DNA of 64,000 nucleotides from a virus (IMGVR_UViG_3300044796_000401), one strand, 5' to 3'. Positions 1 to 12,211 are shown, counted from the first letter of the stretch. The notes: a model not told the origin generated them from the sequence alone. Numbers and translations are program-made.

Positions 1-1503
1 TCTGACCTTCTCAACCAGATCATGGTTAAAATCAAGTCTGACAAGGAAGAGGACATCACCGTGGTGCTGGACATCGTTCACACCGAGAAAGCGGCCTACT
101 TGGTCAACGACCCCAAGGCAGCGGAGGAATGGAACGCCGCTCTTCTCGCTTGCGCCAAGCCCGAAGGGGCGGAAAAAGTATGCTCCCTGAGCGGGGTTTC
201 GGCGGCAACGAGTTCCGACCCCATCGGTCCGGTCAACCTCCCGGCGCTCGGCAAGACATCCCTTTATTCGCGGTTCGGCGAGGTCCCCTGCCTTGAGCGC
301 TACGGTCGATCCGACCGGGATGGGTTCTTGGTTTCCGACGCTAGCATCGCGGAAGCTCGGGACGCCATCCAGTTTCTTGCTACGGGGGACGAACGCAAGA
401 ATCGGACGTATGCCGCGATCGGCAAAGATTCGCTGCTGATCGCCTATCTCGACGAGCGCCCCGAACTGGTTGCGGATTATGTTTCCCCGTTCCGGGACAT
501 CGACGAAGCCGACATCAGCCAGTACGAAGAGCGCTGCTCCAAACTGTTCCAGATGCTCCACGCAAAGAAGGTCAGCGGCCTCGACCATTTGAGCGTCTTG
601 GTGATCGAGAAGGTGAACAAAGGAACCAAGCGGGTCGTTTTGGACGAGCACCTCACGGTCGATGCCATCCGCAAGGCAGTTCAAGACTGGCGCGACGGCT
701 TGACCAATTGCCCGACCGTCGAAACTTTTATTCCGCAGAAAAAGGGAGAGCCCGCCAAGTGTGTCAAGAACGAGCCGTTTTCCCCGACCTGGTTCAGCCG
801 CAGCTTCGGCAAGCCGTGGATTCGGGGCGGGGACGAGAACACCAAGATTCGCGGGCTGTCGATCCCCGAAGCCTATTCGCTTTTCCTGCATGGCGGAACG
901 CGGGCGGCGGAGCAAGCGCACACCCTGCTCCAGCGGTATGTCGGCTTGGTCAAGTCCCTCCTGTACGGTTTCGGGAAGGGTGAACAGGGCTTCAAGGTAA
1001 TGGCTCGGCAGGAAGCGCTTCGGCAGGAAGCGCTTCGGCAAGAGGCGCTTGTTGCGGTGTCGATTTTGGGGTTGTTGCTCTACAAACAGGGACGGTTGAA
1101 GGAGGAATACATGCGGGACATTTATTTTGCGATTGGGCAGGGCTGCAAGGCAGCCGACGGCTTGCACAAGCGGTATTGCGCAGGAGTTCGGGACGGCGAC
1201 GTGCCGTCGCAACTGCTGGGCAACTCCTCGCTGACGGCCATCATCAGGAACCCGGCCAAGGGCCTGAAGATGCTGCTCGGCGACAGCCGCCTGCGGGTCT
1301 ATATGGGCTGGGTGGAGCAGAACGGCGACGGCCTCGGCATCGGGTTCAAGCGCCAGCTTGAAGCCGTAGCCGAAGCGATTTCCGGGCAGGACCTGCCGAA
1401 GCGCTTGACCCCCGAGCAGGAAGCGGAATTGATGCTGGGCTGGCTTGCCCCCCTTCCGAAGCTGGCGAACAGCGGCTCGGACAAGACAGTTGCACAGCAG
1501 TAG
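1..1503 (+). CDS. cas8c: Cas8c (Csd1)-like large subunit of type I-C Cascade; 5' end probably upstream of the window
   Basis: Frame is open from base 1 (SDLLNQIMVK...). C-terminal YFAIGQGCKAADGLHKRYC...VPSQLLGN resembles the Cas8c/Cas11c region. Lies directly upstream of cas7 and a CRISPR array. Confidence 0.75.
   Translation, partial: SDLLNQIMVKIKSDKEEDITVVLDIVHTEKAAYLVNDPKAAEEWNAALLACAKPEGAEKVCSLSGVSAATSSDPIGPVNLPALGKTSLYSRFGEVPCLERYGRSDRDGFLVSDASIAEARDAIQFLATGDERKNRTYAAIGKDSLLIAYLDERPELVADYVSPFRDIDEADISQYEERCSKLFQMLHAKKVSGLDHLSVLVIEKVNKGTKRVVLDEHLTVDAIRKAVQDWRDGLTNCPTVETFIPQKKGEPAKCVKNEPFSPTWFSRSFGKPWIRGGDENTKIRGLSIPEAYSLFLHGGTRAAEQAHTLLQRYVGLVKSLLYGFGKGEQGFKVMARQEALRQEALRQEALVAVSILGLLLYKQGRLKEEYMRDIYFAIGQGCKAADGLHKRYCAGVRDGDVPSQLLGNSSLTAIIRNPAKGLKMLLGDSRLRVYMGWVEQNGDGLGIGFKRQLEAVAEAISGQDLPKRLTPEQEAELMLGWLAPLPKLANSGSDKTVAQQ
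1006..1050 (+). repeat. 15-bp tandem repeat x3 inside cas8c (RQEAL x3)
   Basis: CGGCAGGAAGCGCTT twice, then CGGCAAGAGGCGCTT; in frame. Confidence 0.9.
1111..1503 (+). CDS. cas11: Putative internally translated Cas11c small subunit (130 aa)
   Basis: GGAGG at 1101-1105 and an in-frame ATG at 1111. Internal Cas11 translation from cas8c is established for type I-C. Confidence 0.55.
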   Translation: MRDIYFAIGQGCKAADGLHKRYCAGVRDGDVPSQLLGNSSLTAIIRNPAKGLKMLLGDSRLRVYMGWVEQNGDGLGIGFKRQLEAVAEAISGQDLPKRLTPEQEAELMLGWLAPLPKLANSGSDKTVAQQ

Positions 1504-1614: not shown

Positions 1615-2520
1615 GTGAAGAACGCGAAGGAACTGAAAGAACTGAACCGCGCAACCCTGCTGCTCGTGGTTGAGGCGGTGAACTCCGGGATCAACCAAGA
1701 CCCGGACAACGAGAGCGACCCGCGCACCCAGCCGGATGGGCGCGGGCTGTGCACTCCCGTGTCATTCAAGGCGAAGCTCCGCACGCTGGTGGCCGACAAG
1801 GAATTCAACCTCTGGAAGGAACTGTCCAAGAACCTTTCGTTGGCGGACAAGGAATTCGACGTGCTTGAGCGCCGGGACACGGTGCTGAAAGAAATCTTCG
1901 ATATGACGCCGGAAGCGTTCAAGAGCAAGTATTGGGATGCCCGGTTGTTCGGCAACACCGCGCTTGAAGGCAAGGACTCGGGCGGTGAGAAGGCGGAAAA
2001 GGACCGCTTCGTCCGCACCGGGGTCGTGCAGTTCGGGCTGGGCGTCAGCGTTTGCCCGGTGGACATCATCCGCCTGACGACCACTGGCCAGCGCGCCGTG
2101 CAGGCGGGCAAGAGCCGCGCCATGGCTGCGCTGGGATACAGGGTCGTCAAGCACGGGCTGTACGTGATGCCGGGGTATGTCAACCCCGCCGTAGCCTCGA
2201 AGAGCGGCTGCACCGCGACCGACGTGGAACTCATGAAGCGCGTCATTCCCTACGCCTATTCGCACACTACCTCCTATGTCCGCAGCGAAATCAACATCCT
2301 GCACGCATGGTACGTGGAGCACAAGTCGCCCCTCGGGTCGTGCCCCGACTGGAAGATCATCGAGGCCCTCACCCCGAAGCGGATCGGCGACCCGGAGACG
2401 CCGAGCCAGTCCCGCAAGGACTACGAAATCCCTTCCGCGCTGCCGGAAGAACTCCGCAAGCAGGTCAAGTCGGCCGTGGACCTGATGGAGTACATGGCAC
2501 AAGCGACCGACGCGAAGTAA
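1615..2520 (+). CDS. cas7: Cas7 (Csd2) backbone subunit, type I-C
   Basis: NQDPDNESDPRT, TPVSFKAKLR, YWDARLFG, GVVQFGLGVSV, HGLYVMPGYVNP..A.KSG motifs of Csd2/Cas7c. GTG start. Confidence 0.9.
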   Translation: MKNAKELKELNRATLLLVVEAVNSGINQDPDNESDPRTQPDGRGLCTPVSFKAKLRTLVADKEFNLWKELSKNLSLADKEFDVLERRDTVLKEIFDMTPEAFKSKYWDARLFGNTALEGKDSGGEKAEKDRFVRTGVVQFGLGVSVCPVDIIRLTTTGQRAVQAGKSRAMAALGYRVVKHGLYVMPGYVNPAVASKSGCTATDVELMKRVIPYAYSHTTSYVRSEINILHAWYVEHKSPLGSCPDWKIIEALTPKRIGDPETPSQSRKDYEIPSALPEELRKQVKSAVDLMEYMAQATDAK

Positions 2521-2576: not shown

Positions 2577-3308
2577 CTTGTCAGGTACTTGAAACTATCT
2601 GTGAATTGAAACATGCAGACAAGGGGCTTGGAAGCCGCGTGGAATATCTTGTCAGGTACTTGAAACTATCTGTGAATTGAAACCAAGTCACTTGCACGGG
2701 CTGCACAAACGGTTCCACCTTGTCAGGTACTTGAAACTATCTGTGAATTGAAACGTGAAAAACCTGCGCTCCCAGCTTCCGATTCCCGCTTGTCAGGTAC
2801 TTGAAACTATCTGTGAATTGAAACCAAGACACAAGGCACAGTGACCGTTCAGTCTTGCTCTTGTCAGGTACTTGAAACTATCTGTGAATTGAAACTGAGC
2901 CCCCATCGGGCGGCGTACCACGGGAAGGCCTTGTCAGGTACTTGAAACTATCTGTGAATTGAAACACGTTCTGCGCCACGTAGGATGCGGCCTTGTCGGC
3001 CTTGTCAGGTACTTGAAACTATCTGTGAATTGAAACATTTCCGTTCCGGGAATTTGCGACATCATGCCTGGCCTTGTCAGGTACTTGAAACTATCTGTGA
3101 ATTGAAACATTACCCGCAATGGGGCGGTGACCCCCGCATCGACTTGTCAGGTGCTTAAGACACCTGTGAATTGAAACATGTTATGCTGGTCTTACAACAG
3201 TTAGCCGCACTGCAAGGTGCGTGAATTGAAACAATCCCGAGGCGAATGGCAGGAAGCGGATCAAAGCGTAATGTTTGTCAGGTGCTTAAAACACCTGTGA
3301 ATTTTAGG
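2577..3308 (+). CRISPR. CRISPR array, 11 repeats / 10 spacers
   Basis: Eight identical 36-bp repeats CTTGTCAGGTACTTGAAACTATCTGTGAATTGAAAC start at 2577, 2648, 2719, 2789, 2860, 2930, 3001 and 3073, with 34-36 nt spacers. Variant repeats at 3143-3177, 3210-3232 (internal deletion) and 3274-3308. Confidence 0.97.
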
Positions 3309-8587: not shown

Positions 8588-8825
8588 AACGCCCGGCAAG
8601 GTCATCCTGATCCCCAAGAACATTTGGGACACAACATTGGCGGAGAAACGCAAGCAGCAGCGCAAGGCGTTTGACAACAACAAGCCGCAAGAGCCGCTCA
8701 AGGTCCCGCCGAGGGCGGAGCCTGAGCAAAAAAAGTTTAGCAAGCCCGTGCCTTACGCAGCGCCGGATGGTCCGCAGTTTAGACAGCCGCCGCCGCGAAA
8801 ACGGTTCGGGCTGCTGAAGAAGTAA
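8574..8825 (+). CDS. Basic Pro/Lys-rich hypothetical protein
   Basis: GGAGGAAG upstream; overlaps the previous stop and fills the gap before the RAMP gene. Confidence 0.5.
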   Translation: MAFPKTPGKVILIPKNIWDTTLAEKRKQQRKAFDNNKPQEPLKVPPRAEPEQKKFSKPVPYAAPDGPQFRQPPPRKRFGLLKK

Positions 8826-8847
8826 ATCTGACACGAAAAGAGGATGT

Positions 8848-9423
8848 ATGAAATACATAGTTGAAGTAAAGGGGATGGAAGGCTCCAGCCTTCTGTTCGG
8901 CAAGCACATCGAGTCCCCGAAACGAGATGGAGAAAACGAAGGAGCCTATGAAGACCGCGTATGGCGGGAACGCCTACACGTCGATTCCGAGGGCTTCGTT
9001 GTTTTCCCGGTCGAGGGTTTCAAGCGCTCGCTTGAAACCGGAGCCAAGGGAAAGAAAACCGGAAACGGCAGGCAGACTCTCACCGACTCGTTCCTCAAGG
9101 CGGTCGTGAGCAACAATGCCTTTGCCCAGATTCTCACCCCTAAGGGCAAGCCGATCAAGGCGGATAGCGTGGAACACCTCTGCTTGTTCGTTCCCAGCAA
9201 GGGCGAACGGAACGGCCCCAAGCGGGTCGCCAAGAACTTCCCGTGCATCCCTGAGTGGAAGGCGGCATTTCCCTTGACCGTGCTTCTCGACGACCTCATC
9301 ACCATGGACGCCATCAAGCGGGTTGTTCCCGATGCTGGGCTGCTTGAGGGCATCGGCTCCATGCGTGCCGGGAACGGCAACAATAACGGACGATACGAAC
9401 TCGTTTCCATCCGCAAGGCGTAA
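8848..9423 (+). CDS. Solo RAMP/Cas7-like RNA-binding protein (Vipr-like effector)
   Basis: VVFPVEGFKRSL resembles the Cas7/Csm3 'IP..SLKG' motif. C-terminal G-rich loop AGLLEGIGSMRAGNGNNNGRY. 191 aa; abuts the repeat array. Confidence 0.75.
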   Translation: MKYIVEVKGMEGSSLLFGKHIESPKRDGENEGAYEDRVWRERLHVDSEGFVVFPVEGFKRSLETGAKGKKTGNGRQTLTDSFLKAVVSNNAFAQILTPKGKPIKADSVEHLCLFVPSKGERNGPKRVAKNFPCIPEWKAAFPLTVLLDDLITMDAIKRVVPDAGLLEGIGSMRAGNGNNNGRYELVSIRKA

Positions 9424-9430
9424 ATCTGAC

Positions 9431-10236
9431 GAGACCAGAAGCAGGGACTTTCGAGCCTCTGCTCCTGCTCTCAAGGCAGGAATCCGATCCGATCTGATGG
9501 GATACGACATGACAAGATGCGACTGGAACCGATATGATGCGACATGCTGAGATTAGAGGCAAGGGGCTTCGGCCCTTTGCTCCTGCTCTCAAAGGCAGGA
9601 CTTAGACCTGACCCGATAAAATACGATGTGATATGACCCGGTGGGACGTGACAAGACCCGACACGTTGAGATTCGAGGCAAGGGGCTTCGGCCTTTTGCT
9701 CCTGCTCTCAAGGCAGGCTGTGATTAGATAAGATATGATGGGACGTGACGGGACGTAACTTGACGCGCCAAGCTGAGATTCGAAGCAAGGGGCTTCGGCC
9801 CTTTGCTCCTGCTCTCAAGGCAGGCTGAGATAAGATGCGACGTAACAGGGTGTGATGTGACGTGATTTGTTAAGACGTGGCGGGACATGGCGAGACCAGA
9901 GGCAAGGGGCTTCGGCCCTTTGCTCCTGCTCTCAAAGCAGGAATCGTTAAGATAAGAATAGATGCGGCGCGATGCGATTCGATTGGATTGGAAGGGATTG
10001 GTTCTGATAGGTTGAGTTCAGAAGCAAGGGGCTTCGGCTCTTTGCTCCTGCTCTCAAAGGCAGGATGCGATTTGATTTGATTCGATTGGATTGGACAGGA
10101 TTGGACACGATGGGACCAGACATGTTGAGACCTGAAGCAAGGGCTTTCGAGCCTTTGCTCCTGCTCTCACGGATGGGATGCGATGTGATGGGACATGACG
10201 TGATGGGACTGGATAAGACGCGCTGAGACGAGACAC
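9431..10236 (+). ncRNA. Array of 7 structured ~50-nt repeats alternating with GAY-NN pentamer tracts (putative gapped guide RNAs)
   Basis: Repeat consensus TGAGA-N3/4-GARGCAAGGGGCTTCGGCCCTTTGCTCCTGCTCTCAA(A)GGCAGG at about 9431, 9548, 9666, 9774, 9892, 10012 and 10125. Intervening tracts parse as 5-mers, e.g. GATCC GATCT GATGG GATAC GACAT GACAA GATGC GACTG. Confidence 0.85.
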
Positions 10237-10243
10237 GAAAAAG

Positions 10244-10267
10244 GAGCCCAGAAATGGGCTCTTTTTT
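10244..10267 (+). terminator. Rho-independent terminator ending the array
   Basis: GAGCCCA-GAAA-TGGGCTC followed by TTTTTT. Confidence 0.85.
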
Positions 10268-10583
10268 GTTTTCCCAGTATTGTATCCCGAAGCGGAGACG
10301 CACAACGACGGATGCAGTGCGTGTCGATCCTCCATCGCCGGGAAGGAAAGATGATAAGCCTGAGATTCAAGTACTTGTTCCTCATCTGCCCCAACGGGTG
10401 CTACGCACGGGAGTTGCGCGCCATCGGCGGTAGGGCGGCATGCGCCAAATGCGGTTATTGGCTGCTCGTGCTCACGATTGACGACCTGCGGAAGAACGGT
10501 CCCCGGAAGGGGAAGATATGGACGAAGGTGAATCCGCTGTGGACCGGGGGAAAGTGCGAATAGCGTTTGCGGGGGACAGGCGC

Positions 10584-12181: not shown

Positions 12182-12211
12182 TAGCTAAAATCCCCCGGCC
12201 CGATGTATACT
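12182..12211 (+). promoter_or_regulatory. Promoter TAGCTA-18-TATACT, ATG 6 nt downstream
   Basis: TAGCTAAAATCCCCCGGCCCGATGTATACT-AGGGGC-ATG. Confidence 0.7.

Follow-up and report, generated by a model that had tools for sequence, protein, structure and literature searches.

A predicted VIPR locus with a GAY-NN guide array in a giant phage

The closest described counterparts of the locus reported here are the VIPR (Viral Interference Programmable Repeat) systems, in which a phage-borne minimal RAMP protein, Vipr, is encoded at loci that typically also contain an accessory vap gene (bioRxiv 10.64898/2026.04.26.720920). The corresponding vrRNAs of about 100 nucleotides (nt) consist of 9–16 GGY-NN units and, behind these, a conserved tail at the 3' end; their NN bases pair with double-stranded DNA, one target base being skipped per unit, and transcription is silenced (bioRxiv 10.64898/2026.04.26.720920). 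Natural targets of VIPR are competing phages and satellites, whereas self-targets are absent, and the tracts of Escherichia phage SUSP1 are proven RNAs (bioRxiv 10.64898/2026.04.26.720920). In the SUSP1 structure, one protomer is placed on each pentamer; G1 is contacted by H17 and D177, G2 by R138 and W178, and the pocket for Y3 includes R179 (bioRxiv 10.64898/2026.04.26.720927). Furthermore, a survey described 21 clusters of arrays that are associated with Vipr and use non-canonical triplets, GAC/NN being named explicitly besides CAC/NN, WGT/NN and TGH/NN, which were found by entropy periodicity and accepted as divergent VIPR (bioRxiv 10.64898/2026.10.21.760802). The present study deals with a 191-amino-acid (aa) vipr gene and the adjacent array of GAY-NN pentamers, located within a 64,000-nt stretch of viral DNA (IMGVR_UViG_3300044796_000401, hereafter the window).

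As judged from its sequence, the locus is a member of the VIPR family. The best-supported reading, to which a probability of roughly 0.8 is assigned, is that of an RNA-guided Vipr-vrRNA effector working in a SUSP1-like manner, whose altered pocket reads a GAY scaffold. Directly established in this study were the fold and homology of the protein, the anatomy of the array and its conserved association with the gene, and also the hypervariability of the NN bases, to which ongoing change within the array is confined.

The array occupies positions 9425–10275 and is composed of seven conserved hairpin elements of about 42 nt, the pentamer tracts and a closing terminator (Table 1). A 191-aa gene followed by seven repeats, pentamer tracts and a terminator had been noticed in a first-pass annotation made from the sequence alone; all of these components were recovered at the same positions, and the NN strings listed there for the seven tracts (V1–V7) were reproduced exactly. 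The exact 14-mer TGCTCCTGCTCTCA anchors all seven elements (at 9460, 9578, 9697, 9804, 9921, 10043 and 10156), with start-to-start spacings of the elements of 118, 119, 107, 117, 122 and 113 nt. The tracts contain 10–14 pentamers each and 86 units in total, with G at position 1 in 81 units (94%), A at position 2 in 75 (87%) and G at this position in only four, and C or T at position 3 in 82 (95%; T 58%, C 37%). Positions 4 and 5 are near-random, showing entropies of 1.88 and 1.97 bits over the 86 units. Exact GAY triplets were counted in 67/86 units versus 3% expected from base composition (binomial tail 1e-82). Taking a vrRNA gene to comprise at least four tandem 5-nt units in which a conserved trinucleotide alternates with hypervariable NN, the seven tracts of the window all qualify; the canonical GGY scaffold is not the one used by this array.

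Comparison of 11 elements originating from three loci yielded one long interrupted hairpin as the consensus tail fold, in which GAGA is followed by an internal bulge, then by a 9-bp stem carrying a UUCG-type loop, and finally by UCUC. Compensatory changes were observed for 9 of its 18 pairs, and in the tail of the related locus L001 both C's of UCUC are replaced by U with pairing kept. An alternative small 3' hairpin (CCUGC/GCAGG) is broken in R7 and in L001. In all seven units, the pentamer register passes without a break from the tract to the element downstream of it (always ..GNTGA GAYYN GARGC..) and is shifted by 1 nt with respect to the upstream element. Because the phase is fixed to the downstream element and shifted against the upstream one, the natural unit appears to be a tract together with its 3' hairpin tail, and the handle is most likely located 3' of the tract. 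The repeats and tracts are as described in the first-pass annotation, which had nevertheless grouped each element with the tract following it. The tract-then-tail order would fit the published design of a tract with a 3' tail, and the last tract retains the tail-start motif GCUGAGA ahead of the terminator hairpin; a counter-sign is that the array opens with a tract-less hairpin and closes with a tract. This opening hairpin, R1, may be an orphan tail or may, alternatively, serve in processing or insulation. Screening of Rfam at permissive thresholds revealed no ribozyme (hammerhead included) or other family between the units, and birth of guides by duplication was rejected, pairwise NN similarity among the guides being not significant.

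Two further features were observed at the borders of gene and array. The 11-mer GTAAATCTGAC occurs within the 64 kb only at 8822–8832 and 9420–9430, each copy overlapping a stop codon, and the pair brackets vipr; one metatranscriptome contig starts exactly at 8822, with an adaptor attached. Moreover, the 3' end of the array (10229–10247) resembles the vipr 5' leader (8830–8846). The GTAAATCTGAC pair and the leader-like array end could act as a signal for processing or start, or could be left over from construction of the array.

Concerning the encoded protein, an AlphaFold2 model based on an alignment of 106 relatives reached a pLDDT of 94 and a pTM of 0.87, and all top matches of this model in a Foldseek search against the PDB were Cas7-type backbone subunits (Csm3, Cmr4 and type VII Cas7; E ~5e-5, TM ~0.5). 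A Cas7-type RAMP fold is therefore predicted with confidence, in agreement with the Cas7/RAMP call of the first-pass annotation. No Pfam family, Cas7 families included, was matched by the 191-aa protein, and the PHROGs match was limited to the unnamed family phrog_4652; likewise, tblastn of GenBank phages with the protein returned no match. An exhaustive HMMER search retrieved 669 representative relatives of about 190 aa. The family profile built from the 106 homologues gave one significant match to a solved structure, namely PDB 36pp ('SUSP1 Vipr protein', E=2.1e-12), extending through the thumb and the G-loop. The viral VIPR systems with GGY/NN guides and a 1-nt skip, to which the first-pass annotation had referred, do exist (bioRxiv 10.64898/2026.04.26.720920), and the family of the window protein is homologous to the solved SUSP1 Vipr. 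The G-loop of the window Vipr reads GIGSMRAGNG (residues 168–177). S171, M172 and F131 stand where SUSP1 has D177, W178 and R138, meaning that three of the four SUSP1 residues holding G1 and G2 are replaced; R173 is conserved and corresponds to SUSP1 R179, the Y3 contact.

The two closest homologues (P0002 and P0003; 43–47% identity), both of metagenomic origin, are likewise encoded beside GAY/GAC-NN tracts and a related hairpin tail (loci L001 and L004), and the tail of L004 shares the core CTCCTGCTCTCAAGGCAGG with the window. In addition, 80 IMG/VR loci encoding Vipr relatives were analyzed. GRY-NN tracts flank vipr in 63 of them, almost always on the strand of the gene. The pairing of homologous genes with such arrays, on which the initial interpretation had been made to depend in advance, was accordingly encountered in L001, L004 and these 63 loci. 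Within the part of the survey providing enough units, 24 loci were assigned to the GAY type, for which A had to occupy position 2 in at least 75% of units, and 25 to the GGY type (at most 33% A); others are mixed. The G-loop residue aligned to S171 of the window (D177 of SUSP1) is an arginine in 25/25 GGY loci and S, F, Y or V in 22/24 GAY loci (Fisher P=6e-12, a value that ignores relatedness). Every non-arginine protein of the family is paired with a strict GAY scaffold. A strict determination of scaffold base 2 by this residue was refuted by arginine-bearing relatives, among them L029 and L074, in which GGC occurs side by side with GAC or GAC is used exclusively. The link between arginine and scaffold is consequently one-sided: loss of the arginine always goes with GAY, but not the converse. 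Because arginine proteins also use GAC or mix both forms, GAY is a common natural state of the G-R-Y family and not a singular invention of the window locus. When the G-loop columns were excluded from tree calculation, no fewer than nine changes of the scaffold state and seven of the G-loop state were counted as a minimum; three independent contrasts on well-supported branches all point in the same direction, a number too small for a formal test.

GGC and GAC units are mixed within single tracts of L057, L011, L024 and L008. Because of this mixing, scaffold position 2 is, in part of the family, limited to a purine only. L018 and L079, two IMG/VR relatives of the window, use GAC/NN. The proposal that GAY represents a distinct variant therefore holds insofar as it is a real natural variant, but not the first one reported, since GAC/NN arrays are contained in the published survey (bioRxiv 10.64898/2026.10.21.760802). 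Furthermore, a conserved gene of about 165 aa without Pfam match follows vipr in 69/80 relatives (for example L007:3786-4295 and L009:4188-4685), often with a further pentamer tract behind it, and probably represents vap in this Vipr clade. Among bacterial species genomes, no close relatives of the window Vipr subclade were found.

Strain variation was deduced from comparison of the window with a 208,088-bp scaffold, revealing five differences in 15,617 bases (99.97% identity). Three of these (9623, 9624 and 9633) are NN bases of two guide 2 units, which change from AC to GT and from AT to GT, and the remaining two are located at 12206 and 13578. For at least three of five differences to fall on the 172 NN positions among 15,617 bases, a P value of 1.3e-5 was calculated. 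The variant alleles of guide 2 recur in pond and viral-fraction runs. Because the strain differences cluster on NN bases of one guide, they show that the guides are evolving now. One peat metatranscriptome provided contigs over 8822–8982 and 9202–9811, the latter reaching from the 3' part of vipr into the array as far as the middle of its fourth unit.

Based on the features described above, a mode of action is proposed in which vipr and the array would be co-transcribed from the plus strand up to the terminator at 10243–10272. The transcript would give rise to seven vrRNAs of about 100–120 nt, each consisting of 10–14 GAY-NN pentamers and the conserved 3' hairpin, with the last one being capped by the terminator hairpin instead of a tail. 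Vipr protomers would polymerise along the tract, one per pentamer, burying G-A-Y and presenting NN. By analogy with the SUSP1 complex, the displayed dinucleotides may pair with double-stranded DNA, every third target base being skipped, and the resulting filament would block transcription of a competing mobile element. Reading of GAY would be matched by the changed G-loop, with S171-M172 in place of SUSP1 D177-W178, and by F131 in place of R138. For the GAY locus, processing of the transcript, loading of the protein, recognition of DNA under a 1-nt skip and the resulting silencing are all predicted steps.

Targets were searched for all guides, including both alleles of guide 2, with skips of 0–3 nt; neither on 108 kb of the phage nor on about 0.5 Mb of vipr loci were the nulls obtained with shuffled guides exceeded. 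The lack of self-targets agrees with the published VIPR pattern. In addition, IMG/VR was scanned for exact cores of nine NN under the 1-nt-skip rule with five guides (V1, V2, V4, V6 and V7). Core matches numbered six for V2 and three for V1, all with random extension, and zero for V4 and V6. The single core match of V7 extends to all ten dinucleotides (20/20); judged from 18-base pattern counts, about 0.06–0.2 such matches are expected by chance. The site is located at L099:3343-3371 (IMGVR_UViG_3300000292_000073) on the minus strand, antisense within a lambda-type portal gene, and is present in related phages at 19/20 and 18/20. The other guides performed no better than the null against 80 relatives of this phage (2.2 Mb, both strands). 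The portal-gene match of V7 is thus about at chance level, and its status as a target is unproven. CRISPR spacers 1 and 2 of the phage, considered as another route to a competitor, gave no exact matches. The gapped-pattern search suggested in the first-pass annotation accordingly delivered no match clearly above chance, and the reading rule of the GAY variant continues to be an inferred one.

The window represents phage DNA, as deduced from genes for an exonuclease, HNH endonucleases, a minor head protein and an RNA ligase. This DNA occurs in peat, pond and viral metagenomes of 13 studies. The genome has a size of about 208 kb, corresponding to the 208,088-bp ENA scaffold that shows the five differences mentioned above. 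Over 15.6 kb, the window also agrees with an 84-kb JGI contig without a single difference. Upstream of vipr, a type I-C-like cas3-cas5-cas8-cas7 cluster and a CRISPR array were identified, ending about 5.5 kb before the gene and separated from it by exonuclease, HNH endonuclease and hypothetical genes. The description of the RAMP gene as 'solo' in the first-pass annotation is therefore correct locally, but not for the wider region. Adaptation genes of the type I-C locus were not seen in the stretch read, and blastn of GenBank phages with the CRISPR array gave no match. The array partnered with vipr has a 5-nt period and not the repeat-spacer units of CRISPR. Moreover, a second Vipr gene was found in the same phage. 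Its product is aligned with the family profile at 98.7% by hhalign, matches SUSP1 Vipr directly (E=1.6e-6) and retains the residues with which SUSP1 contacts GGY (R in CRPAF; G-loop GVGDYRP). Two VIPR systems, one of the GGY and one of the GAY type, hence coexist with a type I-C CRISPR-Cas locus in a single phage. A further 191-aa gene followed by a long gap (L092:11837-12412) was considered and dismissed as not being Vipr, the gap holding tRNA-like sequence; a run of tRNA-like sequences extends over L092:12600-13000 after this unrelated gene.

Table 1. Features of the vipr locus and of further loci of the phage. Positions refer to the window unless a locus is named.
Feature	Position	Strand	Remarks
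vipr, 191-aa Cas7-like RAMP	8848..9423	+	ATG 8848, TAA 9423; open reading frame, AlphaFold2 model, Foldseek, family profile
Tail-type hairpin R1	9431..9472	+	directly 3' of vipr stop codon, without preceding tract
Guide tract 1	9481..9545	+	13 GAY-NN units
Hairpin tail R2	9549..9590	+	GAGA..9-bp stem, UUCG loop..UCUC; putative 3' tail of guide 1 (covariation, constant pentamer phase)
Guide tract 2	9600..9664	+	13 units; strain differences 9623, 9624 and 9633, all at NN
Hairpin tail R3	9668..9709	+	
Guide tract 3	9717..9771	+	11 units
Hairpin tail R4	9775..9816	+	
Guide tract 4	9824..9888	+	13 units
Hairpin tail R5	9892..9933	+	
Guide tract 5	9941..10010	+	14 units, most degenerate scaffold
Hairpin tail R6	10014..10055	+	
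Guide tract 6	10064..10123	+	12 units
Hairpin tail R7	10127..10168	+	
Guide tract 7	10172..10221	+	10 units; followed by tail-start motif GCTGAGA (GCUGAGA), then terminator in place of tail hairpin
Intrinsic terminator	10243..10272	+	GC hairpin 10243-10261 plus T6-G-T4; closes vipr-array unit
cas8 fragment	22-1503		part of a cas8-like gene of 628 aa
cas7 of type I-C locus	1615-2520		PF05107 at 5e-42
CRISPR array	2577-3303		at least nine 36-nt repeats ending GAAAC, ~35-nt spacers, degenerate terminal repeats
cas3 and cas5 (cas5d)	L086:2010-4874		upstream of window cas8
Second Vipr gene, 219 aa	L092:1278-1937		same phage, ~43 kb upstream of window start by coordinate mapping
GGY-NN vrRNA of second VIPR	L092:1170-1225 (approx.)		single, ~11 units plus 3' GC hairpin; precedes second Vipr gene

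Several observations weigh against a SUSP1-like effector at this locus. When scaffold substitutions, GGY>GAY among them, were introduced in SUSP1, silencing was abolished by perturbation of GGY; because of this result, reading of GAY by the window Vipr would require a different pocket. The single window protein matches SUSP1 Vipr only at E=0.2, so that family membership rests on the profile. The vap-like gene common among the IMG/VR relatives is absent from the window as well as from L001 and L004. Likewise, the metatranscriptome mentioned above covers 29/30 bins of the first 20 kb evenly and carries no expression signal specific to the locus, for which reason its contigs are not regarded as specific evidence of expression. 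Finally, neither the local sequence nor the exact-core scan of IMG/VR contained a natural target beating chance, and the V7 match places the skipped base on codon position 1 and not on the wobble position. Alternatively, a Vipr-vrRNA ribonucleoprotein might be formed, but the vap-less GAY clade would follow another target rule or use another substrate (for example, a different skip or RNA), such that the SUSP1 mechanism could not be transferred. This is the main rival explanation and is considered unlikely. The missing vap gene, the replacement of three of four residues holding G1 and G2, the want of a 1-nt-skip target in IMG/VR clearly above chance and the presence of RNA-targeting Csm3 among the nearest solved folds speak for it, whereas the period of 5 nt, the strict restriction of position 3 to pyrimidines and the retained R173 (SUSP1 R179) are shared with the characterised mode of reading. 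Moreover, skips of 0, 2 and 3 nt performed no better on local sequence, and the failure to detect targets says little because only exact sub-patterns can be scanned in large collections.

Two other explanations fit the data poorly. That the pentamer tracts act as DNA, for instance as protein-binding iterons or structural repeats, or are decaying remnants and not guide RNAs, would be compatible with the lack of a locus-specific transcription or processing signal in the metatranscriptome. It is nonetheless very improbable given a strand relation to vipr that is consistent over dozens of loci, interspersed hairpins with compensatory base changes, a terminator closing the unit, strain differences within tracts that affect the two variable bases only, and the proven RNA nature of the homologous SUSP1 tracts. 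Slightly less credible still is the assumption that RAMP gene and array belong, as an accessory module, to the type I-C CRISPR-Cas locus nearby. Apart from the proximity of the cas3-cas5-cas8-cas7 genes and their 36-nt-repeat array, which end about 5.5 kb upstream, unrelated genes lie between both loci, and in the 80 IMG/VR relatives as well as in L001 and L004 vipr is paired with pentamer arrays, no cas gene having been seen among the conserved neighbours. The RNA-guided Vipr-vrRNA effector with a GAY scaffold is therefore the reading retained here.

Both VIPR as a kind of system and scaffold variants of the GAC/GAY type were already known from 2026 preprints. New are the locus itself, the missing vap gene and the combination of GGY VIPR, GAY VIPR and CRISPR-Cas in one giant phage, as well as the strain-level NN changes and the finding that G-loop arginine and scaffold base are linked in one direction only. 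VIPR was discovered only months ago, and bench tests have so far addressed GGY-type systems only. The window locus offers a compact natural system of the GAY type, comprising one gene and seven guides without a helper gene. Since its genome also contains a SUSP1-like GGY system and a type I-C CRISPR-Cas locus, it is convenient for asking what sets scaffold specificity, whether two scaffold codes can function orthogonally and whether vap is dispensable. Orthogonal working of two codes would serve multiplexed programmable repression. In this regard, it may tentatively be speculated, at somewhat less than even odds, that GAY and GGY are mutually exclusive codes set by a few G-loop and thumb residues (S171-M172-F131 versus D-aromatic-R in the SUSP1 type). 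If so, the phage would run two VIPR side by side without cross-loading of guides, and its GAY guides would be invisible to the GGY-type Vipr of rivals and safe from hijack by orphan GGY vrRNAs of the sort employed by satellites against SUSP1. The two systems would then constitute a natural orthogonal pair and would provide a residue-level switch for re-coding the scaffold.

Regarding known systems, Csm3/Cmr4 and type VII Cas7 are the nearest solved folds, having the RRM core, G-loop and thumb in common with the window Vipr and polymerising along a guide RNA. Identity to these backbone subunits of Class 1 CRISPR systems amounts to only 11–17%; they show a 6-nt period and a contiguous spacer, in contrast to the 5-nt period and two read bases of the window locus, and the vipr locus is devoid of CRISPR repeats or adaptation genes of its own. 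The non-canonical arrays surveyed previously (bioRxiv 10.64898/2026.10.21.760802) resemble the window in that a non-GGY triplet occurs beside a Vipr-like fold, GAC/NN being the C form of GAY; unlike the present study, the survey does not include locus-level analysis. Closer to the window is the Type II VIPR of Escherichia phage SUSP1 (Vipr, vap1 and vrRNAs), which is likewise based on a phage-borne small single-RRM RAMP with thumb and G-loop. Its guide units of 5 nt comprise three fixed and two variable bases, 10–14 of them precede a structured tail, the array lies 3' of the gene, and self-targets are absent, all of which applies to the window as well, where the position of the tail 3' of the tract is a probable one. 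Differences concern the scaffold (GAY and not GGY), the replacement of R138, D177 and W178 by F131, S171 and M172, the tail, which in the window is a long hairpin without evident pseudoknot, the missing vap gene, the seven guides united in one array, and the function, which for the window locus is a predicted one. The second VIPR of the same phage shares with the window locus a Vipr homologue, a pentamer guide and a 3' hairpin, and differs from it in the length of the protein (219 aa), the GGY scaffold and the single guide located upstream of the gene.

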